A DNA stretch of 64,000 bases from Raja brachyura (lineage: Eukaryota): contig OY740782.1 in the NCBI GenBank assembly GCA_963514005.1, positions 96,782,001 to 96,846,000 on the forward strand, given 5' to 3'. Shown in pieces: positions 405 to 63,700 of the stretch (its first letter is position 1; each line of letters begins with the position of its first letter). Both the position numbers and the translations under genes were made by a program. The notes under the pieces are model-generated. The model was given only the letters and a program-made list of their open reading frames with translations, was not told where the DNA came from and ran no database searches.

Positions 405-666
405 TTCACTGTGCAAGTCCTGCCCTTGTTGGACTTCCCAAAATCCAACACTTTGCATTTCTACGTATTAAATTCCATTAACCATTCCTCAGCCCATCTG
501 CCCAACTGAACAAGATCCTGCTGTAGTGTTTGCCAATTATCTTCACTATCTAGCATCATCTGCAAACTTATTTATCGCACCTTATACCTTTGCATCCAAA
601 TCATTGATATAGATGACAAACAGCAATGGGCCCAGCACCGATCCCTGAGGCACGCCACTGGTCACC
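405..666 (-). mobile_element. CR1 RT fragment
   Basis: Reverse complement encodes VTSGVPQGSVLGPLLFVIYINDLD...FADD. Confidence 0.8.
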
Positions 667-989
667 ATTTGTGGGGTGGGGGAAGGATTGTTGACATCTT
701 GGGTTGAAGCCCTGAATCAGAACAGTGGAAACAAAATATAGCAAGTATAACAAGGAGAAGTGGGGTGGTGGGATAGGGGTCAGTAGGGATTGATGGATCA
801 AGGAGGGGTGAAGAATAATGAACACTTGGAGAGAAGTAGGGTAGCAGAAGAGGTGGAGTTGTTAGAAAGAGTGATAGGTGAAAGCAGATTTTAAAAGATC
901 AACAAAAATAATGAAGGCAGATGGGGGGGGGGGGGGGGGGAAGTGAGGGCAGAGATGGAGATAAATGTTGAAAAATGATAATCTGATAA

Positions 990-1395
990 TAGGCACAAAA
1001 AACTGGACTAACGCTGTGTGTCTGGCAGCATCTCTGGAGAAATGTAATAGGTTACATTTTGGGTCATGACTTCTTCGGACTGAGAATCAGGAGAGAGAGA
1101 AATGAGATAATGTAACTTGAACAAATGAATGAAAGACATGCAAAAAAACAATAATAATCAAGGAAAGGTGGAGCCCACAATGGTCCATAGTTTACTGTGC
1201 AGAAGTTGATAACGAGTTATACAAACAGTGAAACTTAACAGGATGACAGTGAAACTAGTACGACGAGTAGGGGGGGTCGGGATGGAGAAAGAGGGGGTGC
1301 AAGGGTTCCTTGAAGTTAGAATCAATATTCATAATGCTGGGATGTAAGCTACTCAAGCTAAATATGAGGTGCTGTCCATCCAATTTGTGTTTGCA
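990..1395 (-). mobile_element. Degenerate Penelope-like 3' fragment
   Basis: Reverse complement contains CAGCACCTCATATTTAGCTTGAGTAGCTTAC and the terminal unit. Confidence 0.6.
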
Positions 1396-1639
1396 GCTTC
1401 ACTGTTATCCTGTTGTTTCATTGTTTGTATAACTTGTTGTCACCTTCCCCACAGCCAGCAATGTCATTGTGATAACCCGGAGAGCATACTGTAATGTGAC
1501 GCAATCCTAAAAATAACAAAAAGCTTTAAGTCAACAAGTATTGTTCACAACAAATACATGTTAAAGCTGGAGCCACCAGAAAGTAGAAACATTTGCATAC
1601 ACAAGCTACTGTGCAGAGGAAACTTCAGGGCCAAGTTCA

Positions 1640-5489: not shown

Positions 5490-5716
5490 CAACACCAAAA
5501 CTGTCTCAATGTACTTTTCCCACACTGACCTTTCTGTCCTAGCTCTCATCCATTGGCAGAGTGAGGCTAAACACAAATTGTAGAGAGAGCATCTCATATT
5601 TCGCTTGGGCAGCTTGCAATCCAGTGGCATGAATATTAATTTATCTAACTTCTACCTTTCCCTTGACTAGTCTGAAGAATGGATTCGACCCAAAACGTCA
5701 CCCATTCCTTCTCACC
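5490..5716 (+). mobile_element. Penelope-like 3' fragment with degenerate hammerhead motif
   Basis: CATCTCATATTTCGCTTGGGCAGC...TCTGAAGAATGGATTCGACCCAAAACGTC. Confidence 0.7.
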
Positions 5717-5799
5717 AGGCAGCAATTATTCTGAAAGAAAGAGTTGATGTTTTAAGTTGAATTCCTTTCATCAGAGCTCAAAGTGATTGTCCTGAATTG

Positions 5800-6875
5800 T
5801 TAAGGAAAGAGCTGCAGATGGTGCAAAATCAAAGGTAGAAAAAAATGCTGGAAAAACTCAGCGGGTGAGGCAGCATCTATGGAGCGAAGGAAATAGGCGA
5901 TGTTTCAGGTCGAGATCATTCTTCAGACTGATGTGGGAGTGGGGGGCGAGGGGGGGGGGGGGGGGGGAGCTGGGAAGGGGAGGGGAAAGAAGGAGAATGC
6001 AGAGACTATTGGAGAAGTCAATGTTCATACTGCTGGGGTGTAAACTACCTAAGCGAAATAAGAGGTGCTGCTCCTCCAATTTACGGTGGGCCTCACTCTG
6101 GCCATGGAGGAAGCCCAGGACGGAAAGATCAAATTTGGAATGGGAGGGGGGTTGAAGTGCTGAGCCACCGGGAGATCAGGTTGGTTATTGCGAACCGAGC
6201 GGAGGTGTTGGGCGAAGCGATCGTCAAGCCTACACTTGGTCTCACTGATATAGAGCAGTTGACACCTAGAACAGCGGATGCAATAGATGAGGTTGGAGGA
6301 GGTGCAGGTGAACCTCTGCCGCACCTGGAAAGACTGCTTGGGTCTTTGGATGGAGTCAAGGGGGGAGGTAAAGCGACAAGTGTGGCATTTCCTGTGGTTG
6401 CAAGGGAAAGTGCTAGGAGAGGGGGTGGTTTGAGTGGGAAGGAACAAATTGACCAGGGAGTTATGGAGGGAGCAGTTTCTGTGGGGAGGAGATGGGAAGA
6501 TGTGGCCAGTGGTCGGATCCCGTTGGAGGTGGCAAAAATGTTGGAGGATTATTTGTTGTATGTGATGGCTGGTAGGGTGGACGGTGAGGATAAGGGGGAC
6601 ACTGCCCTTGTTATGAGTGGGGCAATGGGGAGTGAGAGCGGAGCTGCGGGATATAGAAGAGACCCTGGTGAGAGCCTGATCTATAGTTGATGAGGGAAAT
6701 CCCCATTCCCTAAAGAATGAGGACATTCCTATGCCCTGGTTTGGAACACTTCATCCTGGGTGCAGATGCGGCATAGACGGAGGAATTGGGAGTAGGGGAT
6801 AGAGTCCTTACAGGAAACAGGGTGGGAAGAAGTGTAGTCCAGATAGCCATTGGAGTCTGTGTGTTTATAGTTGAT
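5800..6875 (-). mobile_element. Penelope-like element 3' part: RT C-terminus, GIY-YIG endonuclease, terminal repeat
   Basis: YKHTDSNGYLDYTSSHP...IPYSQFLRL and FTCTSSNLIYCIRCSRCQLLYISET..RL..RF..H, followed by the terminal unit with hammerhead motif. Confidence 0.9.
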
Positions 6876-7509
6876 GCCTGAATTGTTACCTACTTTCCCC
6901 ACAGACACTGCCACCTACTGAGTATTTCTGGCACTTTTTTGTTTTACGTCAGAGCTCTATAATCAACAGAGTTTTCCTCTTTGAAGATTGCCAGATGTTC
7001 CAAATGATGTCTTCTGAAATTCTTTAAAAGTTTATCTCTGAAATTATCTGTCCAGAAGATGATGTAAGCCAGATCATTGGATTATATTTGAAGTGGAGAT
7101 AGATAAATATTTGAAAAAGGGTTATGAGGAACTGGTACAGAAATGTTGAGGCCAGCATAGTTCACCCAGGAGCATGTGAATGTTGGGGCAAGCTTGAGGG
7201 GCCTGGTGCCCTAGGCTTGCTCCTACTTTATTGCATTTTTTAGCAGGTATAAAGTATTTACTATCTCCAGAGGCTGGAAACCTACCATAGCCATCCAACA
7301 GCTAAATTGATTGAGTATATATCTACCTGCCAAATCTTATACAGAGCCTCTAAAGATCACAAAGTCTAAGATAAATGTAATATGGCCTCAGTTACACCAT
7401 TTGAAAGGCACCAGGGTGTGTTTGGGTAAGGTTCCTGTTTTACTGTATGAATTCCCAAATGCTCTTTGGATTGACCAGTTTGAAAATTATAGAACTACAG
7501 CAGAAGACT

Positions 7510-17110: not shown

Positions 17111-17700
17111 AGTTGCAGAAAACAATGGCGAGCATGAAAACAAATTTCTGCTTTGATACACAAAAGAAAATCTTATGCTTTAAATGCAAAATCCTACCTG
17201 TTATTTGCAAAACCAATCACAAGGTGAGCTGTCATTAAATTGTTAATTAATATTAACCAAAACAGATATTGGATTATTGTCCTCTGAGCTATAAAATGGT
17301 CTGTGGAATCTAGAATGGATTGAATATCAATATGGCAGATGACTGCCAAAAATAACAGACTTTGGTAAGTTTCTGGTGCTATGGCACTGTCTTTGGAGTG
17401 GGGTGAATGCTGACTTTTGATTCAGAGGTATAAGTGCTAGCAGTGAGCACAAAAGCTGACTCCATATACACATTTACTACATGGAGGATGCAATAGGTTC
17501 TGCAATCCCTCAGTTGTATTCTCGCCTGGTAACACTGTACCTGTGGAGCGAAGGCAAAAGTACCACTAACAGCAATTTGATTACAAGTTTCAGCAACTAT
17601 AGCTTTTATTACAAACGACAACAGATCTTGATAACATCTTAAGTAGACAAAAAATGCTGGAGAAACTCAGCGGGTGAGGCTGCATCTATGGAGAAAAGTA

Positions 17701-17735
17701 GGCAACGTTTCGGGTCGAGACGCTTCTTCAGACTG
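17701..17735 (-). ncRNA. Minimal hammerhead motif in a solo Penelope-terminus unit (17641-17735)
   Basis: CAGU-CUGAAGA-A-GCGUC UC GACCC-GAAAC-GUU, with palindromic AACGUU as stem III. Confidence 0.6.
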
Positions 17736-20194
17736 CAAAAAATAAAAGATTTCGGTAAGTTCCTGGTGCTCCTAAGATCTGGATCAGTTCCATTGCCTAT
17801 GCATAATTCCGTGCACTTCAAATCTCCCAAAATAACTTATTCTGACAGGAACCTTGATTTCAAAATTACTGGCGCAAAGCATTAAGACTAAGATGTTTGG
17901 AATGAGTTTTGAGATCACATTGCATTCACCTGAAGTGTTAAGTATTGTTGCTCCTAGCTGGCGTTAGCAATCTGTAAATAAGATTGATCCTGCATTCAAG
18001 CAAACAGCGATTGTTCTGTCAGAATGAAAAGGAAGATCGGATTTCTTGACGGTTCCTCACAAACCATTCAGTAGAAATATTGTAAGGGAATGCTCCTTGG
18101 TGCTTAATTAGTGCTAATGGCAACCGAGTGCCAACATTGCTTTGGTTTCAATTTCTGCTGTTATAAAACTGGGGCTGTGATGTTGGTTCCTTTCAGCAGA
18201 GTTTCGACATTCAGACTTAGATGTACAACCTGCGCAGGTTACAGCTATCATCTGGTTGACAAGAGTTTGAAGCGATATTGTGCTGAACGTGTGCTTGTGC
18301 GTGTTTTTATTAGAAGATTACTTCTTGGATATTGATGGTGCCCAGGGGAGCAGCACTTATGACGAGACATGAATTTAAACTTGTCATGGATTTGCTCTCT
18401 TGAGTGCCATTGATTGCGCACCTCTCAAGGAAACTGGGGAATCTTTTCTGGCGTAAACACTGGATAGCAACACATTGCTTGCAACACTGGATTTTTCTTT
18501 GTGATGGCAAATTTTCCTGGCAAGAGGTCTTTTTGATATTTTGGTTTAACAGTACGATATGTCTGGAAGATTTAACGTCAATTTACAATGACATAGAGTG
18601 GCAGTTCATTGTTAGCGATAACTGAAGTTTTAAAGAATGCAAATAACTTGCAAAGCTGTTCGTGAAACATGAGGATTTAAAACATAGTGATAATGGGGCA
18701 TCTGAAATCTTTGTAAATAATAATACTGACTTGTATTGCAATACTGCTAGACATAAAATTTAGGATTTAAATTCCAGGTAGTTATTATATTTATAATGTG
18801 GGATAACATTATCTGTTTGCCGCTTACTGCATAAAGTCAAAATACATGTCTTTTTTCAAACCCACGCATGTGTTATAATATTATTTTTTCCTTTTTTTTG
18901 CTGTTGTATCTAACAATTGCATTGGAAAGCAAAGCAAAGTTTGTTCATGATTTATACAAATGAGAAAAGCAATGGCAGTATTCAACCATCAGGCTATTAA
19001 ACACTACAATCTCCAAATAAGCATCTAGACTTGGGGGCATTGTCTTTGTCTTTGCACTATTATTGTTTGTTTGTTTATTATATCTATGTACTGAACTTGT
19101 TTTATGGTTATTATGGTGTTTACTGAGTACTATGTTTACATATCTGCTGTAATGAAGAATTTCATTGTTCCTTTTTGGGACATATATGACAATAAAACTC
19201 TTGACGTAGTTTCCCCTTCTGACTTATTGATTATTTGTGTGGTGTATCAACCATCTCATCGAGCATAATAGACCAATCTGTAAATGATAGTTTCAAGCAA
19301 ATGGGAAAAAATCAATTTGCTTCAGACATAATAACTTTTTTTAATATCTCCCCATATTTCAGAAGTATTGGCTATTGGTTTTCTTGTCACTCCTATCCAA
19401 AAATGTGATAACCATTTTTCAGGTTGACCTGTTTCAAATTGTCATAACACCTTTCAGTGCTCAATGATGTCAACTGCATACACGTGTGCCCTAATTTTAT
19501 TGATGTTTATTCCTGCTCCTTCTATATGTTGTACATTATTCATATCCTTGATGATTGAAACTGTGGACTTCAGCATTTCATAAGAGCAAGTGGAGCCACC
19601 TTTAGTGAGATCAAACAGATATTAATAAAAAAGCAGCCTTGCTTAACAGAAACATGAAAAATACCAAAACAAATATCTTGGTTTATCATTGCATTAACAG
19701 TCAATTTTACTATAAAAAGGATATTCTTGCAGACATTATTATTCTTTGTGTTGCCACAGATAAGAGGGTATAACATAAGATCTGGAACACATAGCTCCTA
19801 CTACGCAGAGGTGCAGCGCTTAGTTCTGTTTGATCATGTGATTAGCGTTGCTGCCTCACAGCTCCAGAAACACGGATATTATTCTGACACGGGAAGTTTG
19901 CACATTATCTGTACAAGTGCATAGGTTTCCTCTGGGTGCTCAGTTTCTTCCTATAGCCCAAGGTGACAGTTAGTTGGAGACACATGGAACTGCATGGGTT
20001 GAAATCTTGAGCAAAGCGCAATATGCTGGAGGTAATCAGACTTCTTCAGACTGAAGAAGGGTCCCGACATTAAATATTGCCTGAACATTCCCTCCATAGA
20101 TGCTGCCTAACGCTCTGAGTTCCTCCAGCACTTTGTGTATTGCTCAAGTGACAGTGTTAATTAGCTACAGTAAATTCCCTTTGATCTTACCCTT

Positions 20195-21572: not shown

Positions 21573-22989
21573 AAAGGAAACAGAAAAATGGCATTAGACC
21601 AATGGGAGTGCTTCCCTAGGAGGTGGCAAAGACCTGAAGGGAAGATTGGCCTTCTTCAGTGCTCCTGTAAGTACAAGTCCCAGTTTCTGATGAAAATAAC
21701 TTGCTAAATAGAATTAGTCTAATTGCGACCAACAACATACTGACAGAATAAGTATTCCTGCATCTCCAATCTTCTACATTATAGTGGAGGATGAATAGAA
21801 AGAACCCAATGGACTTCAACATTGCTTAAGAGCAAGAGGAAGGGGAACATAGAAACATAGAAAATAGGTGCAGGAGGAGGCCATTCGGCCCTTCGAGTCA
21901 GCACCACCATTCAATATGATCATGGTTGATAATCCAAAATCAGTACCCCGTTGCTGCTTTTCCCCCATATCCCTTGATTTCTTAGTCATCAGAGCTCTCT
22001 CTTGCAATACATGAGATGTTTATGCTGGAGTGAAGGTCATGATGGTATAGGAAAAACATTTCCCCTTCATTCAAATCTTTAGTGGTTCTTTTCTTTAGAT
22101 TTATTGATTAAAATTATGGTCATTTTTCAAACAACGTAGGTGGGAAAAAAAAATAGAAACTTAGCTTTTGTGAATCAGTTGAAATGTATCAAAAATGACA
22201 ACAGCCAATTTTTAGATCCTAAATGCATACTGCACAATCTGGAAGAGTGGGAGAGTTAAGATTCAGGGGCATGGAAATCGTGGTGGGGCAGACATTTAAA
22301 ACTAAAATTCACGGGGATTTCTTCTTCCAGAGCATTTGAATCTCTGAAACTTGCAAATGCAGAGGGTTGTGAAGGGTAAATCATTGGACGTATTCAAAGT
22401 ATAAGTTAAAAATGTTGAAAGGTATGGGGATCTGGCACAAATGTGGAATGTAGTCTGGGGCAGGTCAGGGATGAACAGATTAAATGGTGGAACTGGATTG
22501 AGAGTCTAATGTTCAATGCTCCAATGTTCACATGATCTTGCATTGGTGTGAGAAGAGGAGGAGGAGGAAACCTTCCAGGGCAACGCATGGTTGACCTGCC
22601 TATTCTCTCCATCTTGACCAACTCCAAAGGATGATCAGGTTAAAGAAGCTACTGCCAACCATGAGTTATCATGCTGCTTGTTCGCAAGCAACTTATGACT
22701 CAAAGGAAAACTGAACATATAGGAAATACTCAGCAGGCCAGGCCTCATGAATAGGAAGAGAAAGTGAGTCATTGTTTCAAATCGAAGATCATTTATCAGA
22801 ACTAGTTATGGCTCATGTTTCTATATTATGCAATTGTGTTCTGCTACCTAGAGTAACTGCCATTTCATTATGCACCAGTAAAAATGTTATATTCCTTAAC
22901 CCCTTTAGGTAACCTGCAATCTTTGCAAAAATGTTAAAATCTTACATTGTCGCAATATTCATAACTTTCAAACCAGCGGAATTGGGCTG

Positions 22990-23802: not shown

Positions 23803-24133
23803 ACTGCCATCTAGTGCTTGATCTTTGAATACCTTCAATTGATCTCTAGAAGAAAATGTACTGTGAACCTCCAGATCTGTATTGCTATTTAGTTAATCAG
23901 TGAAAGATCTCAACTTCACCTTCCATATTGATGGGAAATCGATCTCAGTTTATATGTCACTAATATATCACTATTTCTTCAGGAATTTTTAAGGTGTTGC
24001 TCCTAGCAGCATGGTATCCACCATTGGAAATTTGTAACAAGAATTTTATTTTAACATATGGATTGTATTCTAACTTCCCAGAAAAAAACATGTTCAGGGC
24101 ATGTTTTCCAAAGCAACAACTCTACTTACTTAT

Positions 24134-24227
24134 TCTGAAGAAGGGTTTCGACCCGGAACGGCGCCTATTTCCTTCGCCCCATAGATGCTGCCACACCCAC
24201 TGAGTTTCTACAGCACTTTTGTCTACC
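24134..24227 (+). repeat. Solo Penelope-terminus unit, hammerhead core mutated (GAAA to GGAA)
   Basis: CTGAAGAAGGGTTTCGACCCGGAACGG. Confidence 0.7.
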
Positions 24228-24790
24228 TACTTAATGAGTTTGTTGGGGAGTGGTTGCTAAGCTGTGGCATTTGTTTTTCTCTGTGTCTATAGATATAAGC
24301 AGACCTTGAACAATGAATACAGTATTAAGTAGAAGAGGCCATCAATAACTATTCTAAAAATAGTTCAGTTCCGTGCAAGTTGAAAGCTGATCGGGCTTTT
24401 AATTCTCAAGGAACACTCTCTGCATTGGTTTGAGTCACATATTTCAATAAATTATGTTGAAATTAATCCCTCAGATTTGCATGTGGTGCAATTAAAAAAT
24501 AATTTCCTGATCTTACACAAGGGATTATAACCCTTGACAATATTGTCCCTTATATTTTGTAGGCATAGCCGAGTGGCAGAGCGGAAACAGAAAGAGGCGA
24601 GATGAAAAACACATAAGGCCTTCCTCCAGATGAAATTCCTGTGGCAACTTTAACTCTTTTGTATTATTATTATTACTGACTGAAAGAAATTGGAAAGAGA
24701 CACAAAATACTGGAGTAACTCAGGGGTCAGGCAGCTTCTCTGGAGAAAAGGAATAGACCCTTCTTCAGAAATTAGAAACCCCATTGATTT

Positions 24791-25236
24791 AAGGGCCTGT
24801 CCCATTTGGCTGTCTTTCGCGCGCCATTTACGCGCCCTGCTAGCGTGTGGGTAGTGCATGGGTAGCGTGTGGGTAGCGCGGGGACGGGCGCATGGAGTGG
24901 TGTGGAGGAGTGTGGACTTCAACCTGCACGAAATCTTCACGCGCCACCGACCTGTCGCGTAACTGATGGCCAAAGTGGGACAGGCCCAAGACCCTGGCGC
25001 GACGCAATGTCTCACCTCCAACAGAAGCAGAAGCAGGCAAACGATCGTCGAACTCAGCCTGGGGCTCACGGCCATTGCAGATCCGGCCCTATCCTACTCC
25101 CAGAGTGGGGCCAAGAAGATTGAAGATAGACACAAAATGCAGGAGTAACTCAGCGGGACCGACAATATCTCTGGAGAGAAGGAATGGGTGACTTTTCGGG
25201 TCAAGACCATTCTTTCAGGCTGAAGACAGGCCCTTT
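24791..25236. mobile_element. Related MITE with GGGCCTGTCCCA termini, carrying a Penelope-terminus unit
   Basis: AAGGGCCTGTCCCA at 24791, TGGGACAGGCCC near 24976-24987, GACAGGCCCTT near 25225-25235. Confidence 0.6.
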
Positions 25237-28172: not shown

Positions 28173-28611
28173 CTAAAGAGTCTGAAGAAGGGTCCCAATC
28201 CAATGCATGCATGTCTTCCAGAGATGCTATCTGACCAGCTAGGTTAATCCAGCACCTGGTGTCTTTATTTTGTAAACCAGCATCTGCAGTTCCTCGTGTG
28301 GGCAATTAAATGCTCGCTCAATAAAAAAAAAAAATGGTCCACAGTAATAGGTTGTTTTGCTTCAGGAAGAAAAAGGATTGGCAGATGTGTACCATTATCT
28401 ATTGAATCAGTATTGCCAATTTGCATGATTGCACAGTCAAGCTCTAAATTGAACAAAATTAGTGTACAAAATTGAAAGAAACGCAAGCTGAGTTTTCCAG
28501 AACCATGTAACTAAAATATAATGTCATCGGTCTCATAAGAAACCAAACCCACCAGGTATATTACTGTGATAAGGATTAAAATATCATGAAAGATACTTGT
28601 GGAAATACTTA

Positions 28612-30619: not shown

Positions 30620-31357
30620 AGATAACTATTTTCGCCACCTCCAACGTGATCCCACCACTCACCACATCTTCCCATCTCCCCCCGTCTGCCTTCCGCAAAG
30701 ACCGCTCCCTCTGCAACTCCCTTGTCAATTCTACCCTTCCCTCCCACTCCACCCCTTCCCCGGCACGTTCCCTTGCAACCGCAAGAGATGCTACACAAGT
30801 CCCTTTACCTCCCCCCTCCACTCCTTTCAGGGACCCAAGCAGTCCTTCCAGGTCTGACAGAGGTTCACCTGCACCTCCTCCAACCTCATCTACTGCATCC
30901 GCTGCTCTAGATGCCAGCTGATCTATATCGGTGAGAGCTTGGCGATCGTTTAGCCGAACACCTCCGCTCGGTCCGCAATAACCAACCTGACCTCCCGGTG
31001 GCTCAGCACTTCAACTCCCCGTCTCATTCCGTACCTGACCTCTCTGTCCTGGGCCTCCTCCACGGCCAGAGTGAGCAACACCGCAAATTGGAGGAACAGC
31101 ACCTCATATTCCGCTTGGGGAGTCTGCATCCTCTGGGCTTGAACGTTGAATTTTCTCAATTCTGTTAACCCTTGCTGTCTCCTCCCCTTCCCACTTCTCC
31201 CCCAGCCCTAGGGCTCCTCCTCCTGCTTTTTTCTTTCTTCTCCCCCCCCCTTCCTCCCATCAGTCTGAAGAAGGGTTTCGGCCCGAAATGTTGCCCATCT
31301 CCTTCGCTCCTTAGATGTTGCTGCACCTGCTGAGTTCCTCCAGCCTTTTGTGTACCA
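30620..31357 (+). mobile_element. Penelope-like element GIY-YIG fragment plus terminal repeat
   Basis: Highly similar to the reverse complement of 5800-6540 (RFTCTSSNLIYCIRCSRCQLIYIGE). Confidence 0.88.
31261..31295 (+). ncRNA. Minimal type-I hammerhead ribozyme motif (Penelope terminus)
   Basis: CAGU-CUGAAGA-A-GGGU(UUCG)GCCC-GAAA-U-GUU. Core intact with a 4-bp stem II. Confidence 0.65.
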
Positions 31358-31897
31358 ACTATTTACCAATGCTAGATTGAGAGAAGTGTGAAGAGTGCAG
31401 TGGAAATAGTAAATGTAAAGAATATAATGTAGATGAAGATTTCAGTAGAAATGGAGATGGTGGGAGATAAGAATCTGATAATTTTACCAAACAGAAATAA
31501 ACAATATTGTAGTTTAGTTTAGTTATACAGCACTGACATTTACTGGAGCAACAAGCAACCTGCCAAAGGAAAGCTGGTTGAGCAGCATCTCAGGGTGGAA
31601 ATAAATTACTGACATTTTTCAGGATGAAACCTGCATCAAGAAAGAATATTATTGTAGGGACTGGATGACGGAGGAAGTTTGTCTTCGGTCAAATATGACC
31701 CCAAGGCTGCAAACAAATTGGTTCACATTTAGACCATTACCAGTAAGAGGGATATAATCAATAGTGGAATGAAGTTTCTAATGGAAGCTGAAGGCCATGA
31801 CTTTAGTTTTCCCATTATTAATTTGGAGGTAATGTCTGCTTTTTATTGCACTGAATATTGAACATTGAACATAGAGAACATGAAAGTGGCAGTGAGA

Positions 31898-35138: not shown

Positions 35139-35699
35139 CTAATAAAATAAATTAAACATGATTGTGTTAACGTGTAAACTCTCTGTGATCAGATTGGTCA
35201 ATTGCATTAAATTGTATTCCCTTATCATGTATCTTTTCATTGTATTGGCTTGATTGTAATCGTGTATTGTCTTTCTGCTTACTGAATAGCACGCAACAAA
35301 GCTTTTCACTGTACCTCAGTACACGTGACAATAAACTAAATGGAACTAAACAGATCTCCCACTACATTGCTTTCGGGACATCTGTATCAGCTGACTGTTC
35401 TTTGAGGAATCCATCAAGCAGCAGCTGAAGCTGAACATTCAAATGGAGGAAGAGAAATGTCAATGATTACAGCAGTTTGAGGAGAGGCAGGACAGGGCTG
35501 GGCAGGCCAGGCAGGCTGGGGTGAGGCAGGGCCTTTTCCCTCCAAACCTTTCCTAGCCACGTACCTAGCTTTGTGTCTTTTAACTTGCGTAATGGTATCT
35601 GCCTCCACCACTCCAATTAGCAGCTCATTCCACACGTGCACGACGCTCAGTATAAAAACAATTGCCCCTCAGGTCAATTTCAATTCAATCCCTATCACT

Positions 35700-36020
35700 T
35701 GGGCGGTCACAGTGTGTGCAGCGGTAGAGTTGCTGCCTTGCAGCGAATGCAGCGCCAGAGACCCGGGTTCAACCCCGACTACGGGTGCTGTCTGTATGGA
35801 GATTGTACGTTCTCCTCGTGGCTTGCGTGAGTTTTCTCCAAGATCTTCGGTTTCCACCCACACTCCAAAGACGTACAGGTTTGTAGGTTAGTTGGCTTGG
35901 TAAATGTGACAATTGTCCCTTGTGGGTGTAGGATAGTGTTAATGTGCGGGGATCGCTGGTTGGTGCGGACCTGATGGGCCGAAGGTCCTGTTTCTGCGCT
36001 GTATCTAAACTAAACTTTAA
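35700..36020 (+). mobile_element. tRNA-derived HE1/V-SINE-type SINE, near complete
   Basis: A-box-like GCAGCGGTAGAG, B-box GGTTCAACCCC, V-domain-like body, CR1-like tail GGGCCGAAGG..CTG...GCTGTATCTAAACTAAA. Confidence 0.85.
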
Positions 36021-36747: not shown

Positions 36748-36990
36748 GAGATAGACACAAAAAGCTGGAGTAACTCAGAGGGACAGGCAGCATCACTGGA
36801 GAGAAGGAATGGGTGACGTTTTGGGTCGAGATCCTTCTTCAGACTGAAAGTCACGGGAAAGAGAAACATTTCGAAAACCCGAAACATCACACATTCCTTC
36901 TCTCCAAAGATGCTGCGTGTCCTGCTGAGTTACTCCAGCTTTTTGTGTCTATCTTCGGTTTATACCAGCATCTGCAGTTTCTTCCTACAC
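36748..36990. repeat. Head-to-head inverted pair of Penelope-terminus units inside a CR1 fragment
   Basis: GATAGACACAAAAAGCTGGAGTAACTCAG...CTGAGTTACTCCAGCTTTTTGTGTCTATC. Confidence 0.85.
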
Positions 36991-38206: not shown

Positions 38207-38574
38207 GAGAAAGCACTGATTGGCTCTAGCCCAAGTGGGAGGAGAGTTCTCAGTGAGTCAGAGGGGGAGAGCAGTTAAAAAGGAGAGGCAAAGCACAGGC
38301 AGACTTCACTCAGTCTTCCCGTGGATTTTGAAGCAACAGCAACAAAGAGAAGCAGGAGAAAGCACTGATTGGCTCTAGCCCAAGTGGGAGGAGAGTTCTC
38401 AGTGAGTCAGAGGGGGAGAGCAGTTAAAAAGGAGAGGCAAAGCACAGGCAGACTTCACTCAGTCTTCCCATGGATTTTGAAGCAACAGCAACAAAGAGAA
38501 GCAGGAGAAAGCACTGATTGGCTCTAGCCCAAGTGGGAGGAGAGTTCTCAGTGAGTCAGAGGGGGAGAGCAGTT
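38207..38574 (+). repeat. About 2.5 tandem 149-bp monomers in the CR1 5'UTR
   Basis: Units start at 38207, 38356 and 38505 and are nearly identical. Each has ATTGG (CCAAT) and TGAGTCA (AP-1). Confidence 0.9.
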
Positions 38575-38773
38575 CCTCAAAACTGAGGAATTTGGTTTGT
38601 AAATTAGGCAATTGAACAGTCAATATAAGCAAGGCAGCTCTTGGGGAGAGGCAGTGAGGGAGTGGTCTTGTGAGGGAAGTGCCCTGTGAGTAAAGTGTGA
38701 GTCTTTGGCTCGAGAGTCTTCGGCGAGGAGGCTGCGCAAAATACTGGATAGGGCGAGACCGAGGCAAAAGAAG

Positions 38774-39700
38774 ATGTCAAGCAAGCTGATGCAGTGTGAT
38801 GCTTGCAGTATGTGGGAGGTCAAGGACACTGCTGGTGCCTCTGGATGCTACAAATGTGAGAAGTGCATCCAGGTACAGCTCCTGAAGGACCATGTTGGGG
38901 AACTGGAGAAACAAGTGGATGACCTCGGGTTCATTCGAGAAACTGAGTCGTTTCTCGACAAGTCCTTCAGTGAGATTGTTACACCCAAGGCACTAGAAGA
39001 GAGAAGGTGGGTGACGGTGAGAAAGGGAGGAAAACATGGGATGCAAAGGTCCCCGGGTGTTGTACCTCTTGTGAACAGGTTCACCCACGTGGAAGCTGCC
39101 GGGACAGAAGACGGTATCCCACTGAGCGGCGGACTGGCTTGCCAAACAAAAAGGGCTGATGAGCCAAACCCACAGAGGCCAAAGTCGGGCAACGCCATTG
39201 TAGTTGGAGACTCCATTGTGAGAGGTACGGACAGGGGTTTTTGCGGCAACAGACGGGATTCCACGATGGTGTGCTGCCTTCCTGGTGCCAGGATCCAGGA
39301 TGTTACGGACAGAGTGCAGACAATCCTCAAGGGCGAAGGTGACCAGCCGGAAGTGGTCGTGCATGTTGGCACAAATGATGTTGGAAAGAAGGAGATGAAT
39401 TTTTTGCAGCGGGACTTCAGAGAGCTCGGACAAATGCTGAAAAGCAGGACTTCCAGGGTTGTTATCTCCGGTTTGCTTCCAGTTCCTCGTGCTGGCGAGA
39501 GCAGGAACAGGGAGATATGGGACCTGAATGTGTGGCTGAGGAACTGGTGCAGGGGGCAGGGATTTAGATTCTTAGATCACTGGGATTTTTTTTATAGTAA
39601 GGGGGAACTGTACAAAAGGGACGGATTGCATCTTAACAGGTGGGGGACCAGCATTCTGGCCGGCAGGTTTGCCACTGCTACACGGATGGTTTTAAACTGA
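38774..39700 (+). CDS. CR1 ORF1p: zinc finger/leucine zipper plus SGNH(GDSL) esterase, apparently intact
   Basis: CxxC...CxxC, heptad leucines, GDSIVR, HVGTND, DGLHL motifs. ATG at 38774 within ORF 38705-39700. Confidence 0.9.
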   Translation: MSSKLMQCDACSMWEVKDTAGASGCYKCEKCIQVQLLKDHVGELEKQVDDLGFIRETESFLDKSFSEIVTPKALEERRWVTVRKGGKHGMQRSPGVVPLVNRFTHVEAAGTEDGIPLSGGLACQTKRADEPNPQRPKSGNAIVVGDSIVRGTDRGFCGNRRDSTMVCCLPGARIQDVTDRVQTILKGEGDQPEVVVHVGTNDVGKKEMNFLQRDFRELGQMLKSRTSRVVISGLLPVPRAGESRNREIWDLNVWLRNWCRGQGFRFLDHWDFFYSKGELYKRDGLHLNRWGTSILAGRFATATRMVLN

Positions 39701-42700
39701 ATAAGGGGGGTGGGGTATCAAATGGGATAGTCGAGGACGGAGTTAGAGGGAAAGAGAGTAAAGCGATGGTTAATGACCCCAGAATTAACGGGGAAGAAAG
39801 CTCACAAAGGGATAGGAGAGTATGGCCAAGTGTAATAGGGATCGATGTGAAAGGGGCCACTTGTCAACATAATTGTATAAGGAGTAAGAGTGTTGTAAAA
39901 ACAAGCCTGAAGGCTTTGTGTCTCAATGCGAGGAGCATTCGTAATAAGGTGGATGAGTTGAAGGTGCAGATAGCGATTAATGACTATGCTATAGTTGGAA
40001 TCACGGAGACTTGGCTCCAGGATGACCAAGGCTGGGAGCTGAACATCCAGGGATATTCAATATTCAGGAGGGATAGACGAAAAGGAAAAGGAGGTGGGGT
40101 AGCGTTGCTGGTGAGAGAGGAGATTAATGCAATAGAAAGGAAGGACATTAGCGTGGAGGATGTGGAATCGATATGGGTAGAGCTGCGAAGCTCTAAGGGG
40201 CAGAAAACGCTAGTGGGAACTGTGTACAGGCCACCTAACAGTAGTATTGGAGTTGGGGATGGCATCAAACAGGAAATTAGAAATGCGTGCAACAAGGGTA
40301 ACACGGTTATAATGGGTGAATTCAATCTGCATGTAGATTGGGTGAATCAAATTGGCAGGGGTGCTGAGGAAGAGGATTTCCTGGAATGTATGCGGGATAG
40401 TTCTCTCAACCAACATGTGGAGGAACCAACGAGAGAGCAGGCTATTCTAGACTGGGTATTGAGTAATGAGGAAGGGTTAGTTAGCAGTCTTGTTGTGCGT
40501 GGCCCCTTGGGCAAGAGTGACCATAATATGGTTGAGTTCTTCATTAGGATGGAGAGTGACAAAATTAAGTCAGAAACAAGGGTTCTGAACTTGAACAAAG
40601 GTAACTTTGAAGGTATGAGATGTGAATTGGCCAAGATAGACTGGCAGGTGATTCTTAAAGGGTTGACAGTGGATGTGCAATGGAAGGTATTTAAAGACTG
40701 CATGGATGAAGTACAAAAGTTGTTCATACCAGTTTGGCAAAAGAATAAATCGGGGAAGGTGGTGCATCCATGGATAACAAGGGAAATCAGGGATAGTATA
40801 AAAACAAAAGATGAGGCATACAAATTTGCCAGAAAAAGCAGCCTACCGGAGGACTGGGAGAAATTCAGAATCCAGCAGAGGAGGACAAAGGGCTTAATTA
40901 GGAAAGGGAAAATAGATTATGAAAGGAAACTGGCAGGGAACATAAAAACTGACTGCAAAAGTTTTTATAGATATGTAAAGAGAAAGAGACTAGTTAAAAC
41001 AAATGTTGGTCCCTTGCAGTCAGAAACAGGTGAATTGATCATGGGGAACAAGGACATGGCAGACCAATTGAATAACTACTTTGGTTCTGTCTTCACTAAG
41101 GAAGACATAAATAATCTGCCGGAAATAGCAGTGGAACGGGGGTCAAATAAGATGGAGGAACTGAGTGAAATCCAGGTTAGCCGGGAGGTGGTGTTGGGTA
41201 AATTGAACGGATTGAAGGCCGATAAATCCCCAGGGCCAGATAGTCTGCATCCCTGAGTACTCAAGGAGGTAGCCACAGAAATAGTGGATGCATTAGTGAT
41301 AATTTTTCAAAATTCCTTAGATTCTGGAGTAGTTCCTGAGGATTGGAGGGTAGCTAATGTAACCCCACTTTTTAAAAAAGGAGGGAGAGAGAAAGCGGGG
41401 GAATTACAGACCAGTTAGTCTAACATCGGTAGTGGGGAAACTGCTAGAGTCAGTTATTAAAGATGGGATAGCAGCGCATTTGGAAAGTGGTGAAATCATT
41501 GGACAAAGTCAGCATGGATTTACGAAAGGTAAATCATGTCTGACAAATCTGATAGAATTTTTCGAGGATGTAACTAGTAGAGTGGATAAGGGAGAACCAG
41601 TGGATGTGTTATATCTAGACTTTCAGAAGGCTTTTGACAAGGTCCCGCATAAGAGATTAGCATACAAACTTAAAGCACACGGTATTGGGGGTTCAGTATT
41701 GATGTGGATAGAGAACTGGCTAGCAGACAGGAGGCAAAGGGTAGGAGTAAACGGGTCCTTTTCAGAATGGCAGGCAGTGACTAGTGGGGTGCCGCAAGGC
41801 TCAGTGCTGGGACCCCAGCTATTTACAATATATATTAATGATTTGGACGAGGGAATTCAATGCAACATCTCCAAATTTGCAGATGATACCAAGCTGGGGG
41901 GTATAGTTAGGTGTGAGGAGGATGCTTGGAGGCTGCAGGGTGATTTGGATAGGCTGAGTGAATGGGCAGATGCATGGCAGATGCAGTACATTGTGGATAA
42001 ATGTGAGGTTATCCACTTTGGTGGCAAAAACATGAGGGTAGACTATTATCTGAATGGTGGCAGATTAGGTAAGGGGGAGATGCAACGAGACCTGGGTGTC
42101 ATGGTACACCAGTCATTGAAAGTAGGCATGCAGGTGCAGCAGGCAGTGAAGAAAGCAAATGGTATGTTAGCATTCATAGCGAAAGGATTTGAGTATAGGA
42201 GCAGGGAGGTTCTACTGCAGTTGTACAGGGTTTTGGTGAGGCCACACCTGGAGTACTGCGTACAGTTTTGGTCTCCAAATCTGAGGAAAGACATCCTTGC
42301 CATAGAGGGGGTACAGAGAAGATTCACCAGACTGATTCCTGGGATGTCAGGACTTTCATATGAGGAAAGATTGGATATACTCGGTTTGTACTCGATGGAA
42401 TTTAGAAGATTGAGGGGGGATCTTATAGAAACCTACAAAATTCTTAAAGGGTTGGACAAGCTAGATGCTGGAAGATTGTTCCCGATGTTGGGGGAGTCCA
42501 GAACAAGGGGTCACAGTCTAAGGATAAGGGGGAATTCCTTTAGGACCGAAATGAGGAAAACATTCTTTACACAGAGAGTGGTGAGTCTCTGGAATTCTCT
42601 GCCACAGAAGGTAGTTGAGGCCAGTTCATTGGCTATATTTAAGAGGGCGTTAGATGTGGCACTTGTGGCTAAAGGGATCGGGGTATGGAGAGAAGGCAGG
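39640..42700 (+). pseudogene. CR1 ORF2 (APE endonuclease plus reverse transcriptase), disabled
   Basis: LNARS, ITETW, YRPP, SDH, PQGSVLGP, FADD motifs present. Nonsense TGA at 41254-41256, frameshift in a G-run near 41397-41401, and catalytic GDFN reads GEFN. Confidence 0.9.
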
Positions 42701-47384: not shown

Positions 47385-47929
47385 TTACTCTTCTGGCTTA
47401 ATATTAGTTATTTCATTGATACCTCATGGATAAACATTTGCCTTGATGTATTGAGTTATTAAAGCAGTAATAAAATTGTTCTGCAAAATAAAAAGATAAT
47501 TATTTACAAATTGGGGAAATTCGAGGAGAAAATGCTGGAATCTGGCAGAATTAAATAAACCCTGGAAAAACTCAGTGGGTCAAGCAACATCTGCAGAGGC
47601 AAAGGGATAGTAGACACCTTAGATTGGAGACCTTGCATCAGAGAAATTAAAGGGGTTGATTTTACAAGAGGGTTCCTGCTGAGGCTTTGGATTACAATAA
47701 ATTGTACAAACCCAGACTGACCACCACTAATCAATGGTCAGTGGTTCCCAGGCTTTTTCTGACCCCTTAAATAGAGGCATAATATTAACGATTCTTCAGT
47801 CTTTCGACATCTCACTCATGGCTATTGGTGAAGAAATATCTCATGCAATTTTTTTCCCCAGTTTCCCAGGATGTCCTAGGATATACTCTCCTATGTAGTC
47901 TCCTATTCATAAATTTATGAATGGTCTCC

Positions 47930-49382: not shown

Positions 49383-49897
49383 TTAGTTTAGTTTAGAGAT
49401 ACAGTACGGAAACAGGTGCTTCAGCCCATTGAGTCTGTGCCTACCAGCGATCCCCATACATTAATATTATCCTACAGACTAGGGACAATTTACAATCTTT
49501 ACTAAAGCCAATTAACCTACAAACCTGAAAATAGACACAAAATGCTGGAGTAACTAAGCAGGACAGGTGGCATCTCTGGAGAGTAGGAGTGGGTCACGTT
49601 TCAGGTCAAGACCCTTCTTTAGAGTCGACTCAAAGCGTCACCCATTCCTTCTCTCCAGAGATGCTGCCTGTCCTGCTGAGTTACTCCAGCATTTTGTGTC
49701 TATCTTTGGTTTAAACCAGCATCTGCAGTTCCTTCCTACACAAACTACTAACCTGAACGCGGGAGGAAACTGGAACACCCGGAGAAAATCCACACGGCCA
49801 CAAGGAGAACTTACAAACTCTATGCAGACAACACCCATGGTCAGGATTAAACCTGGGTCTCTGGTGCAGTAAGGCAGCAACTCTACCACTACACCAC
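49383..49897 (-). mobile_element. HE1/V-type SINE split by an inverted Penelope-terminus dimer
   Basis: Tail 49383-49527, head 49750-49897. Confidence 0.75.
49530..49742. repeat. Head-to-head inverted pair of Penelope-terminus units inside a SINE
   Basis: ATAGACACAAAATGCTGGAGTAACT...AGTTACTCCAGCATTTTGTGTCTAT, arms about 70 bp. Confidence 0.85.
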
Positions 49898-52745: not shown

Positions 52746-54310
52746 TAAACACAGCACAGATCCATCTGTGGTCATGGAACTTCCAAAGGTATTTTGCACT
52801 GGGGATGGGAGATAATGAGTCCAATTTATGTAAAATCTGACTAACCTGAGAGAGTTAATGGAAAGTAACCCCTACGTAAACCGGGGAGGGCCTGTATAAC
52901 TCAACAAGAGCTGTGCATAAGTGAATGTTACAGACGGACTCATCCCATGGACTGGAACCATATGCTGAGGTATATACAGAAGCTGTTGCAGCTGCCACAG
53001 AGGCTCTCTGGGGACCACAATTTAAGTTCCTCCTCTTATTGCACTGTCCTCTCATTGAGAGGCCAGAGACTGCATAAAACTTCTCAAGTGTATTGATCAT
53101 CGACTATATGAGTAAGAAAAAATGATAATAGACACAAAATGATAGAGTAACTCAGTGGGTCAGGCAGTATCTCAGAAAGAATGGGTGATGTCTCGGGTCA
53201 AGATCGTTCTTCAGATTGTCCCACTATTGATGCCACTAATATTGTGCAAATTTTGTAAGCAAATAGAATGTTTACTGTGCATGGCAACTTATGAACATAC
53301 TGCACTATATATCTGCAAATTTTATACATAGATATAGGTTGGGAAAAAACAATGGAAGAGCAGCAGTAGGTGCTTCACATGTTCTCTAGTACTTCCAATC
53401 TTCCATGTTAAAGATTAATTTTCAGACTGGAGAAATCTTTCAGGCCATAATGATGCAATTATAAACTTGGACTGTACATAAAATCTGCTGTTGTGCTATT
53501 TAAACAAAGAAATGGAGTGGGGAAAACTGGACATAGTGAAGGGAACTGCAGATGAGAGAGGGATAAGACTTTGGAAGAGGTAATTTGGCTCAGCTATGAC
53601 AGGCAGTGAAAAGCTTGGGGAAGTGACAAGGGAAGACAATAGGGAATGAGAATAATAAGAACCAGAGGCAAAGCATGGTCAGAATTACATGTAAATTCAC
53701 TGATATCACAACAAATTCCTGCTGTAAACATTTCACTGGACAAGGTTGGGCCTGACACAATCAGAGCTTAAGTATACAGAGAACTGTAGATTTGAATACA
53801 ATAATTTGGAGAATACAATGATTCAGAGAAATTTGGACTAAAACCTAAAATAAAGTATAAGCAAAAAAGGTTGTCAAAGCATTTTGGCTTCCAGCAAGAG
53901 AAAAAGTAAATAATAGTCAAGAATTTTCTTAAATTGTTACCTTCAGCAAATCTGTGCAAACTCTTGTGCCTTTGATGTGTTGTACAGATGAAGTAAGTGC
54001 AGTAAATATCAAACTTCGACCATGAGGAGCAGCCATTCCTGTTTTGTTGTATTTCCAGGGAGTGAGTGAGTTTGCAGTTTAACCTGTAAAGTGCTGCTAT
54101 GATCCATGAACAGTCAAAAATAAACTGAGTCCCAGCAGCAAACAGTCCAAAGCAGATTCAGAAACCAACCTCTAATCCTCACCTTCTTTACCCCACCATC
54201 TTCCACATAAATGCAGAATGCAAAGGTTATCAAATCAATGACACTGATTGGGTAAATTATAGCATCAGTAAATGGTTAGACTGGTAACACCAAAGTTTGC
54301 TGTTGGTGCA

Positions 54311-55395: not shown

Positions 55396-55430
55396 AAGTC
55401 TGATGAAGGTTCTTGACCCGAAACATCACC
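55396..55430 (+). ncRNA. Minimal hammerhead motif in a solo unit (55396-55525)
   Basis: CUGAUGA-A-GGUUC UU GACCC-GAAAC-AUC. Confidence 0.55.
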
Positions 55431-56019
55431 CATTCCTTCTCTGCAGAGATGTTGCTTGTCCCACAGAGTTTCTCCAGCATTTTGTGTCTATCTTCGATTT
55501 AAACCAGCATCTGCAGTTCCTTCCTGTACCTCTTATTTACCTGCACATAATCCATATCCCTCCATTCCCTGCATATCCATGTGCACATCCAAAACTCTCT
55601 GAAATCGCTTAACTCTCTTAAGTACCTGTTTTAACCACAACCCCCGACAGCGCATTCCACCCTCTGTGTGACAATGTTGTCATGCACATCTTTTTTTTAA
55701 TTTGCCTCTCTTAACTTAAAGCTATGCCCTCGAGTATTTGATTTTTTTTCACATCCCACACATGATATATAAATTATACATTAATACTACACGACAGTGA
55801 AAAGAAAAATAATGTGCAAAAAGACATTTGTGCAAAAATACACAATTAAAAGGACAAAGGACATTTATTGTCACATACAATATGACACACTGCCTTGGTT
55901 GACACAGGATAATGTATTAATTTATTGTTTAATTCATTGTTTAATTTATACAATAAATGTCTTAAACAATAAAAAATTTCTCAACAGTAATAACCCCTCT
56001 TTCGCAGGGCAAATTACAA

Positions 56020-60750: not shown

Positions 60751-63700
60751 TGCTTGTTGGTCAGTATTAATTCAATGGGCTGAAGGCCGTGTTTCTATGC
60801 GGTGTGGTTATCTATGATAATTCTTCCAAGAAAATCTTTCTGTGAGCAATGATAACCTCTCTGTACTTCATGGACTTTCCTCCATTCTTGTCTCTTGATG
60901 GGAGGGATTATTTTTATTTCCTTAACAAGAAGCTTTCATTCAATTAATAACAGATGCAGAGTACTGAAAAGACCAAGACTGCCATTGTCAGTTTGCAAGC
61001 AACAATCAAACAGTTATCAAATTACAATGTGGTCAACCTCATATACAACACACTCAAGTGCCCTGCAGTGAACAGTGTTCACGGAGGGGATCCAGAGTTC
61101 CCATGGGCACCTTGTGCTCCCTCTCCGGGGACAAGTGAGCAATGGGTTGGATTCTTGGCTCTTATCTTTCAATGTCTGACACTTTATTTTGGATTTAAGG
61201 GACCTACTGGAGGATCTGATAGTCTCTCTATAGGGCATGGACCAATTATTTTTAGGGCTGGAGTAAAGTGATCCTCAACAATATATATAGTACCTAGAAT
61301 TGGGGTGCATGTGATGACGTCTGGCATGTGCTGAAATCTCATTAGAATGAGCTGGGGAGTCATGGCGTGCAGGTTTATTCTGCAGGGAGAGTCACTGAGA
61401 TGCCAAGCTAGTTCATACTTGATGCCAAAACCAACACACATGCACAATGGAGAGAAACATAACAGCTTGCTACATTTCCATATTAGACATTACCCGATCC
61501 CATAGATCTGCCTCTACATTGTTCCTTCATGTGGCCTTTGTGCAATGAAGCTATCCATGAGCTCCTGTATGGAATCACGTATCCAATTGGCTGAAGAAGG
61601 GTCCCAACCCAAAACATCACCTATTCATGTGCTCCAGAGATGCTGCCTTACCCGTTGTGTTATCTCACACTTTGTGTTCTGTGCAAGATTCAGCATTTGC
61701 TGATCCTTGTGTATCCAATTGTTCCACCCTGCTTGAAACCCCTCTCCGTATTTCTAATAGGTCCCAAGACTCAGCTGTGATGTAAAATTTTAGAACATAA
61801 GAAATATGAAGGGACTATTGGTCATGTTTCCTCTCAAGCGTGCTCAGCTATTCAACAGGATTGTGGCCTCGTCTCTGCTTTCTTGTCTACTCCCCATAGC
61901 CCCCCGTAGCCCTTGGCCACCCAGTAATTCAAAAGTCTATCTAGCTCAGACTTACATATACTTCGTAATTCAAGAACTGCACAGGTGCCGGAGTAGAGCC
62001 TTCAACCATTTCTGAGAGAAAACAAGCCCTCACCTCAGTCTGAAATTGATGTTGTAATATACCTTTTAGCTGCATTGTGAAAGAACTTGTGAATTCCATC
62101 AGATCAGCAGCCAACCAACCCAGAATCTAACCTATTGATAAGGTATAAATTTGAGCAGGTCAGGACTATCATTTCTTATTTTGACTTCACAGCTGCTGAT
62201 GACTTTTTGAATGGTGTGATAATGAGTGTTATAAGTACAACTGGTCAGAAAATCAGCTGTGAGTGGGACTTAAATTTCAATTCCCTTCATATTCCATGAT
62301 CCCACCTTGTAGAATATGACTGCAACCTAAACTTGCCTTGATTTTTACACCCACGGATAATGCTGCAAACCTATCAATCCATTCTTCACAATTTAAGACT
62401 GACACAAGTTCAAATGTGTATCTGTTCTGAACAGGAAAGGAAATAAAGGATATTTTAAAGCATATAATAGTCGCTTTTATAGTCAGCTGTATTAGGTTAA
62501 AAAAAACAATCAAACTGTGGCAGTCTCCCTGGGATGTAATACTGCTAAGAAGGAAATCCAACCCATTAACATTTAACAGATATAACATTTCCACCAGCTG
62601 GATTTGAATAACAAGTTATAGATGTACCTCCGTCCTGCAGCTTCATGTGCCATATTTTCATCCAGAGGCAGAGCTGAGGTCACGTTTCATGCACTGAACT
62701 CGTGTTGTGCTGTGGTTTGAGAATTAAGACAGATATCAGCTGTCTTTTTGAGTTACTAATTGCCTTCAACATGACACAAAAGGATAATATTTTGACTACA
62801 TGTTAACATTTGGTCCGCAGGCACATTATCAATAGTTGGATTAACACACTGCATTTATGCTCCGTAATATTCTGTAGCATTTTACAGCCTCTCCTAAAAA
62901 CAAATATTCAGTGCAGGTATTTTGTTTAACATGGACCATTAAAATTCAAAACCTATTGCAATAAGCAAAGATAATCAAATACTTAGAGATGAAAGCATTT
63001 ACAATGTACAAAAGGTAATTTCACCCACAAATATCATGACTAAAATTTAATGTCATGAATAATTTATATTGTCTCTGTTGAAACAATTTTATTGAAGGCT
63101 ATTAAGAGGTTATACATTCAATCAGTTACAGGGCATTTGGTAGCTGTCCAGAATGGTTTATCAGGCACATTACTGCCAGGAAACATTTGAATCTATGGAA
63201 CAAAGATTAATTATAAGAATCTCACAGATAGGTTTTCAGACTGAGCAAAATTGATATTGAATTTTAAAATAATGGAGAACAAACACCACAAACTAGTTAC
63301 ACCACACAGACAGAATACCACAACACATTGAATAAGGTTTAGTCTCATCAAAATTAAAATAAAACCACATTTTTTTAATTGATTGATGCGGTCAAAACTG
63401 TCATGTTCCCAATTCTCACTCCTCCCTGGTCATGCTGAAAAGACAATGCTGGTCTTTCTCCATGAATCAGTGCAGCTCTGGTCATATGCATGATGGCAGG
63501 GGAATTCAAAATATTGATGTAGGGATGATGAAGACATGACAAGATAATCCAAGCCTGAGAGATGTGTTACTGTAAGGACAGCTTGGACGTGTTGATAGGT
63601 TTGACACTGTTACTGGTACTGAACAAGGGACTGGATGTATTTGCCAAAGCTTTCAGAGTTCCTCAACTGCATCATGTAGCAATGTTACAAAATTTTGAGA

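Follow-up and report, generated by a model that had tools for sequence, protein, structure and literature searches.

A short sequence with a hammerhead-like motif recurs on both strands of the window (the whole 64,000-nucleotide stretch of Raja brachyura DNA that was analysed), mostly as copies that stand alone, and this raises the question of what the unit is and how so many solitary copies (solos) were made. An earlier note had listed 14 positions for the repeat, at about one per 5 kb, and had read the solos as a retrozyme-like element driven by its own ribozyme. All 14 positions, on both strands, are matched by a unit profile (nhmmer), which gives 28 matches at E<=5 and 22 at E<0.01 in the 64-kb window. 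Leave-one-out searches recovered 19 out of 19 training copies (E<=0.0034), the reversed window gave no match, and none of ten shuffled windows had a match at E<0.01. It is homology across the whole unit that identifies the repeat, the bare pattern CTGANGA..GAAA being only weakly enriched in the window (12 matches vs 5.4 expected). Its density is high, as had been stated, and the figure is revised to about 1 copy per 3 kb.

Copies beyond those previously listed include units at 720(-), 5774(-), 22799(-), 24768(-), and 47641(-), inverted partners at 6877(+), 36877(+), and 49634(+), and weak additional matches at 31637(-) (E=0.016) and 20038(-) (E=1.1). Identity to the plurality sequence ranges from 58 to 93% among the copies, which belong to several subfamilies, with at least three different kinds of UTR upstream of the unit. 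There are 19 core-bearing copies in the window, four linked to an ORF and 15 solos. In contigs of four out of 21 public sequencing runs compared with a 1,441-bp stretch, 93,613 records (X1) and 141,401 records (X10) fit, which shows that the unit family is abundant in two coded organisms; summed depth is greater over the unit than over the ORF, a figure that does not give a copy number. No match to the exact pattern was found in metagenome and viral contigs.

Copies of the unit and associated features in the window, with the position of the hammerhead core in brackets.
Feature	Position	Strand	Evidence and remarks
Decayed unit (core 720), helix I 4 bp	663..722	-	profile E 0.002
Penelope endonuclease C-terminus, ~230-bp UTR, unit (core 1078)	983..1403	-	blastn 1403-1312 E 9e-14; tblastn E 0.002
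Penelope endonuclease C-terminus and unit (core 5672), shortened on 3′ side	5517..5718	+	tblastn E 7e-10
Decayed unit, divergent subfamily (core 5774)	5716..5777	-	leave-one-out E 0.0034
5′-truncated Penelope: RT end, CX4CxxC linker, GIY-YIG endonuclease, unit (core 5926), tail	5800..6872	-	
Inverted partial pseudo-LTR without tail, at 5′ end of 5800..6872 Penelope	6877..6939	+	nhmmer E 2e-4; tail test
Solo without tail (core 17731)	17640..17735	-	profile and tail test
Head-to-head pair: + solo (core 20051) and internally deleted inverted partner with tail	19980..20148		8-bp target duplication; partner alone E 1.1
Decayed solo, divergent subfamily (core 22799), helix I 4 bp	22715..22801	-	profile
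Solo without tail (core 24135)	24132..24230	+	target duplication overlaps unit 3′ end
Solo missing most of hammerhead (core start 24768)	24689..24769	-	profile; target duplication
Solo without tail (core 25218), 7-bp inverted fold-back at 5′ end	25119..25226	-	profile
Solo with tail (core 28182)	28178..28297	+	12-bp target duplication, 1 mismatch
8-bp target duplication flanking 725-bp Penelope insertion	30624-30631 and 31357-31364		
5′-truncated Neptune-type Penelope insertion, 725 bp	30632..31356	+	tblastn to P0001 at 30630-31162, E 1e-50; unit at its 3′ end
3′ UTR pyrimidine tract, TCAGT at end	31168..31264	+	candidate 3′ splice site or initiator
Minimal hammerhead (CUGAAGA with one extra A; stem II of 4 bp including a U.G; GAAA; stem III without loop; GUU)	31265..31292	+	predicted cut after 31292; helix I 2 bp; sole intact copy of 19
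Remainder of pseudo-LTR, no tail at end	31293..31356	+	nhmmer and tail test
Head-to-head pair: - unit (core 36842, UTR of ~28 bases) and a tailed inverted partner	36748..36990		C7orf78-like intron; 14-bp target duplication, 1 mismatch
Decayed solo, divergent subfamily (core 47641)	47530..47643	-	profile
Head-to-head pair: - unit (core 49622) and inverted partner with tail	49525..49740		profile and tail test
Solo without tail (core 53214)	53123..53217	-	profile and tail test
Solo with tail (core 55400)	55397..55526	+	profile and tail test
Solo with tail (core 61591)	61590..61709	+	perfect 11-bp target duplication stopping 1 base before core

Penelope-like elements (PLEs) of the Neptune type carry this unit as their 3′ pseudo-LTR. 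A PLE endonuclease C-terminus precedes four of the 19 core-bearing copies (cores 1078(-), 5672(+), 5926(-), and 31265(+)). It had been reported that the unit terminates a Penelope at 5.9 and 31.3 kb, which is correct for both places; that these were the only two is not, given the blastn and tblastn matches ahead of 1078(-) and 5672(+). All four of these copies are truncated, to about 0.2-1.1 kb, and the window holds 3′ fragments only. The PLE fragment in the window itself has no Pfam match, being recognized through a relative (P0001, 62% identity) that matches GIY-YIG at E 5e-4, and full-length relatives (P0009, P0011, and P0015) match both RVT_1 and GIY-YIG. The closest named protein relatives of the window are from a ray (Mobula, 62% identity) and from sharks. 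Both a CX4CxxC linker and a CxxC inside the GIY-YIG domain are present in the 5.9-kb copy, and when 156 relatives were examined the linker was found in 93 of the 97 that show the inner CxxC motif. A CX2-5CxxC linker together with this CxxC marks the Neptune and Nematis clades and excludes Penelope/Poseidon (PMC8557442); Neptune rather than Nematis is inferred from vertebrate distribution (bioRxiv 10.64898/2026.07.22.740005). Comparison with the ORF starts of the 156 proteins found no link to the unit, chance matches only. PLEs have also expanded in the introns of the whale shark (10.1101/443036). Within 1.4 kb of the window (5517-6939) there are three Penelope ends of different subfamilies, two of which face each other; possibly one Penelope inserted into the terminal repeat of another.

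As the earlier note proposed, the motif in the Penelope terminus is a type-I hammerhead of the minimal sort known from PLEs, and its plurality sequence fits the published PLE consensus. As in PLE minimal hammerheads generally, stem II is closed by G10.1-C11.1 and stem III is palindromic and loop-less; 82% of stem II cells and 71% of stem III cells are paired. The extra A after A9 is present in 19 out of 19 copies. The plurality sequence is complete at all 11 core positions, which are kept in five individual copies, and core and stems II and III are fully kept in one (31265). In this copy, stem III is AAUGUU, with a U.G pair and a GUU cut triplet, and not AACGUU as had been read. Stem I had been suspected of weak pairing, and helix I is indeed <=2 bp in 15 out of 17 copies (2 bp in seven, 0-1 bp in eight, and 4 bp in two; copies 24768 and 28182, which have deletions, are left out of the count), where published PLE minimal hammerheads have a helix I of 2-5 bp. 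The abundant subfamilies are those with <=2 bp; the 4-bp cases belong to divergent subfamilies. The latter (720(-) and 22799(-), two decayed copies only) have opposite outer pairs, U-A and A-U.

Covariation, which had been suggested as a check on stems I and II, is absent: in a small and decayed sample of 15 sequences, one of the 19 pairs changes on both sides, and 490 out of 500 shuffles score as high. Likewise, RNAalifold found no consensus pair in the unit copies. Column identity is 0.93 in the core vs 0.83 downstream (p=0.002), a difference that is biased because the copies were anchored on the core, and the excess reflects at most constraint between subfamilies. The decay of the hammerhead is of the CpG type; G12, with an identity of 0.56, sits in a CpG. 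For both main subfamilies, the lowest-energy predicted fold pairs the core with pyrimidines behind the cut site, and folds compatible with a hammerhead are predicted to lie 6.6-17.7 kcal/mol above the ensemble, weak evidence because these energies have no positive control. A search of the window against Rfam gave no hammerhead match at E<=1. From the sequences, self-cleavage activity is doubtful for nearly all copies.

The solos have three features of ordinary PLE insertions, namely the tail, inverted partners, and target duplications. A target duplication score >=8 was obtained for eight out of 18 insertions, compared with 1.6% of 306 mismatched flank pairs (copy 5774, nested between two other copies, is left out); ten have no convincing duplication, and two of the eight scored overlap unit sequence. 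The p-values for duplications, as for 5′ ends, are optimistic because boundaries and ends were set partly by eye after viewing the sequence. The 3′ ends are bimodal: the tail of about 35 bp is present in seven out of 20 copies, borderline in one, and absent from 12 (pass, score >=26; null 99th percentile, 23; 720, 5672, and 5774, which are cut short, are left out). Head-to-head inverted partners are found at four insertions (one partner is weak when scored alone, E 1.1), and in all four pairs exactly one member carries the tail. An inverted partner and a tail at one end only are as described for PLEs (PMC8557442; PMC3846280).

The motif CCAGCA occurs twice at about +50 to +125 of the unit (e.g. 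55445-55520 (+)), one before each 3′ end, and both could pair with one upstream arm (GATGCTG). The first of these stems is 80% paired without covariation, and pairing of the tail is predicted in the folds of both subfamilies; such pairing could possibly be a signal for two reverse transcription start sites.

Ordinary truncation leaves one feature unexplained, the sharp 5′ edge. Thirteen of the 19 copies start at -5 to 0 from C3, and a uniform stop rate predicts 0.7 (ends were placed by eye, and the p of 1e-12 is optimistic); in the subfamilies with an ORF-linked reference, there are seven out of 12 such starts vs 0.3 predicted. Inverted partners excepted, none of the 19 core-bearing copies starts inside the unit. 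Target duplications fix four of the 13 sharp ends, at about -4 to 0. Upstream sequence in common with an ORF-linked copy is found in one of the 15 solos, none in common among the solos beyond chance (105 pairs), and comparison with a candidate first exon found no spliced first exon ahead of them. The edge is seen within the 64-kb window, and the public contigs gave no confirmation outside it. Among the 24 of 4477 rows listed, the best supported 5′ loose ends are at 5669 (642 contigs) and 5932 (316 contigs in X1). The consensus letters there are UTR-like (agreement 0.33-0.42, confounded by mismatches of this copy) and indicate that many copies genome-wide do extend upstream. No splice joint at the CAG/T site is among the 15 of 409 joints listed from these contigs.

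The sequence TCAGTC just before the core resembles an initiator, and it also resembles a 3′ splice site behind a pyrimidine tract, as in D. virilis. With the first bases of the core, it forms a near-palindrome at the 5′ edge of the unit (TCAG-T-CTGA), on which short fold-back inversions are centred in copies 20051 (20041-20054) and 25218 (25214-25226).

Taken as hammerhead-bearing PLE terminal repeats, the solos are probably dead insertions of 95-135 bases, made by the enzymes of the element itself and copied from uncut RNA up to the 5′ edge of the hammerhead. They are likely to be very short Penelope insertions and not a new element driven by its ribozyme. If the anole element (PMC11167929) is a guide, copying by the PLE protein would begin on uncut element RNA, at either of two internal sites. 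The ends of the unit fall about 28 bases upstream and 65-105 bases downstream of the cut site, therefore the template would not have been cut there. For the anole PLE, the main substrate is RNA that has not been cleaved, and mutants of the hammerhead still insert as usual; reverse transcription has two internal start sites on an RNA that crosses the pLTR-ORF junction, and the tail lies between these sites (PMC11167929).

Copying would then stop at the 5′ edge of the hammerhead, most likely since the RNA begins there. PLE transcripts start in the upstream pseudo-LTR (PMC8557442; PMC2377424) and the anole protein uses RNA beginning in the upstream pseudo-LTR in vitro (PMC11167929), therefore initiation at the 5′-proximal copy would yield a short product by run-off. 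The most speculative step, to which we give slightly less than an even chance within this model, is that this run-off occurs where transcription starts near TCAGTC. In D. virilis Penelope, an intron ends just before the hammerhead and transcription starts about 125 bases upstream of it, across this intron (PMC4209133; PMC2377424). The D. virilis start counts against a start at -3, for which the literature available gave no precedent. A fold-back at the near-palindrome or a fixed endonuclease cut could stop copying instead. The ribozyme would belong to the master element, and production of solos would need none.

A broader version, which we regard as possible but doubtful, is that most Penelope insertions in these fishes are a fixed-length by-product or a self-propagating mini-element, with reverse transcription starting at the pseudo-LTR nearest the 5′ terminus of the element's own uncut RNA and running off three bases before the core. 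If this is so, tens of thousands of solos map the 5′ end of the RNA and both initiation sites, and the most widely spread subfamilies have spread with a crippled 2-bp helix I. This would indicate, at genome scale, that spreading does not require the Penelope hammerhead.

The solos could instead be a self-propagating non-autonomous SINE-like family with an internal promoter, transcribed from its own 5′ end and copied in trans by Penelope protein. This is rather unlikely. The fixed 5′ end, sharp in 13 of 19 copies, would be explained, as would 15 solos to four ORF-linked copies; however, the commonest types are found in either state, and 5672/36842 and 5926/24135 each join an ORF-linked copy to a solo sister (support only 81-84). 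The tree as a whole, in which one of 18 branches is well supported, does not set solos apart from ORF-linked copies (four changes, with 500 out of 500 shuffles as low). At least two divergent solo groups have no ORF-linked member in the window, and several divergent solos have no ORF-linked sister there; one branch made up of three solos is supported at 95/95. The terminal repeats of PLEs suffice for mobilization in trans, and non-autonomous PLE derivatives are known (PMC8557442; PMC3846280), but the promoter is hypothetical: ARAGORN found no tRNA in the window (a search that would miss a decayed head), Rfam gave no match at E<=1 in the window to a SINE Pol III head (tRNA, 5S, or 7SL), and the unit starts at the hammerhead core. 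The copies are also old, by their identity to the plurality sequence.

[quoted passage not shown] It predicts a fixed 5′ edge and retained target duplications, but the repeats are only about 100 bp long, and full-length precursors look rare because all four ORF-linked copies are truncated. Such recombination was suggested for the solo pLTRs of Adineta, which are nevertheless without target duplications (PMC3846280).

The least probable origin, with next to no chance of being correct, is a strict retrozyme, in which dimeric RNA self-cleaves and circularizes and the circle is reverse-transcribed into dispersed monomers; the core fits a minimal hammerhead, and tandem retrozymes from PLE termini in one chondrichthyan (mean consensus 363 bp) and dispersed monomers in Xenopus have been described (bioRxiv 10.64898/2026.07.22.740005), but none of the 19 tandem-repeat rows for the window involves the unit, its ends do not coincide with the cut site (28 bases ahead of it and 65-105 bases beyond it), helix I is 4 bp at most and <=2 bp in 15 out of 17 copies with no covariation, and retrozymes are defined on canonical, not minimal, hammerheads with a helix I of about 6 bp (PMC7229834). 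Because there are no tandem arrays in the window and the core is kept upstream of the cut site, the solos are not retrozymes, and the earlier proposal of a retrozyme-like, ribozyme-driven element is not upheld; one of 19 motifs is intact, and in the poorly resolved tree the solos do not group apart from ORF-linked copies.

Solos had also been placed, in the plural, within the introns of a host gene. The gene is C7orf78-like (-), with coding exons at 47384-46974, 44825-44748, 35139-34996, and 34904-34809 (58-69% identity to a Heptranchias protein), and the placement is supported for one insertion, at 36.75-36.99 kb between matched exons, but not for several. Inverted pairs such as this one can form long RNA hairpins within an intron. 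There are two Rfam miRNA matches in the window, both far under their cut-offs; the miRNA-precursor match at 36772-36930 (-) (35.6 bits vs a cut-off of 85) is a hairpin artefact of the inverted pair and was rejected. An intron of the same gene contains a near full-length LINE (38690-42823 (+)), which encodes an ORF1 with a GDSL-type esterase domain followed by endonuclease and RT in two ORFs, and which is presumably CR1-like. Ahead of it, a 149-bp unit is repeated 2.5 times at 99% identity (38207-38574). Another interspersed repeat, assumed here to be the elasmobranch HE1/V-SINE, is present at about 49430-49850 and 35600-35890, and one of its copies seems to enclose the inverted pair at 49.5-49.7 kb.

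Widespread single PLE hammerheads have been known since 2014 (PMC4209133), and as a ribozyme finding the present data add one lineage to that published pattern. With about 1 copy per 3 kb, two separate 3′ ends, a 5′ end that appears fixed, and target duplications that can be read, this family would allow the questions of how PLE 5′ ends arise and what role the hammerhead has (PMC8557442; PMC11167929) to be tested on thousands of natural insertions. The finding is a practical warning too, that hammerhead counts and miRNA-like hairpin matches in these genomes are mostly decayed PLE termini. In the literature searched, which did not extend to Repbase and subscription journals, no account of this family or of a fixed 5′ end of solos was found; the supplements of bioRxiv 10.64898/2026.07.22.740005 may list the family, and Fig. 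S2 of PMC11167929 (genomic coverage) may show a pile-up of short copies.

Among known systems, the PLE hammerheads of Cervera and de la Pena (2014) share the U-rich leader, CUGAnGA with one extra base, G10.1-C11.1, the loop-less palindromic stem III, and the position of the motif behind the ORF (PMC4209133). Most of those are single, probably from truncated PLEs, and some form close opposite-strand pairs (PMC4209133). As far as its lists (Table S1 and Fig. S3) were available, no cartilaginous fish was found in them. About 4,000 and 9,000 intact motifs per genome are given for coelacanth and Xenopus (PMC4209133), which is not like for like with the density here, one of mostly decayed homologues. 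Helix I here, G-C plus U-A or U.G, is weaker than the 2-bp G-C/G-C helices of that study. With the Neptune clade (Craig et al., 2021; PMC8557442), the elements share a C-terminal GIY-YIG domain with CxxC between the half-motifs, the CX2-5CxxC linker, 5′ truncation, a copy inverted on the 5′ side, and a tail of 30-40 bp confined to one end; the portions of that paper available gave no description of 5′ ends piling up at the hammerhead edge.

The anole Poseidon element PAc (Frangieh et al., 2024; PMC11167929) likewise has two alternative 3′ ends downstream of its hammerhead, and its insertion from uncleaved RNA fits the sequence that the solos retain. It belongs, however, to another clade, its ORF starts inside the hammerhead, and it has a 3-bp helix I and protein-assisted cleavage. 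Animal non-LTR retrozymes (PMC7229834; bioRxiv 10.64898/2026.07.22.740005) are also non-coding and hammerhead-bearing, related to PLE termini, and found as dispersed monomers. They form tandem repeats with a hammerhead in each unit, of which there are none here, and those of the 2020 paper (PMC7229834) have canonical motifs and circular RNA, whereas the motif here is minimal and decayed. Unlike the ends of these retrozymes, the ends of the unit described here are the ends of PLE insertions.
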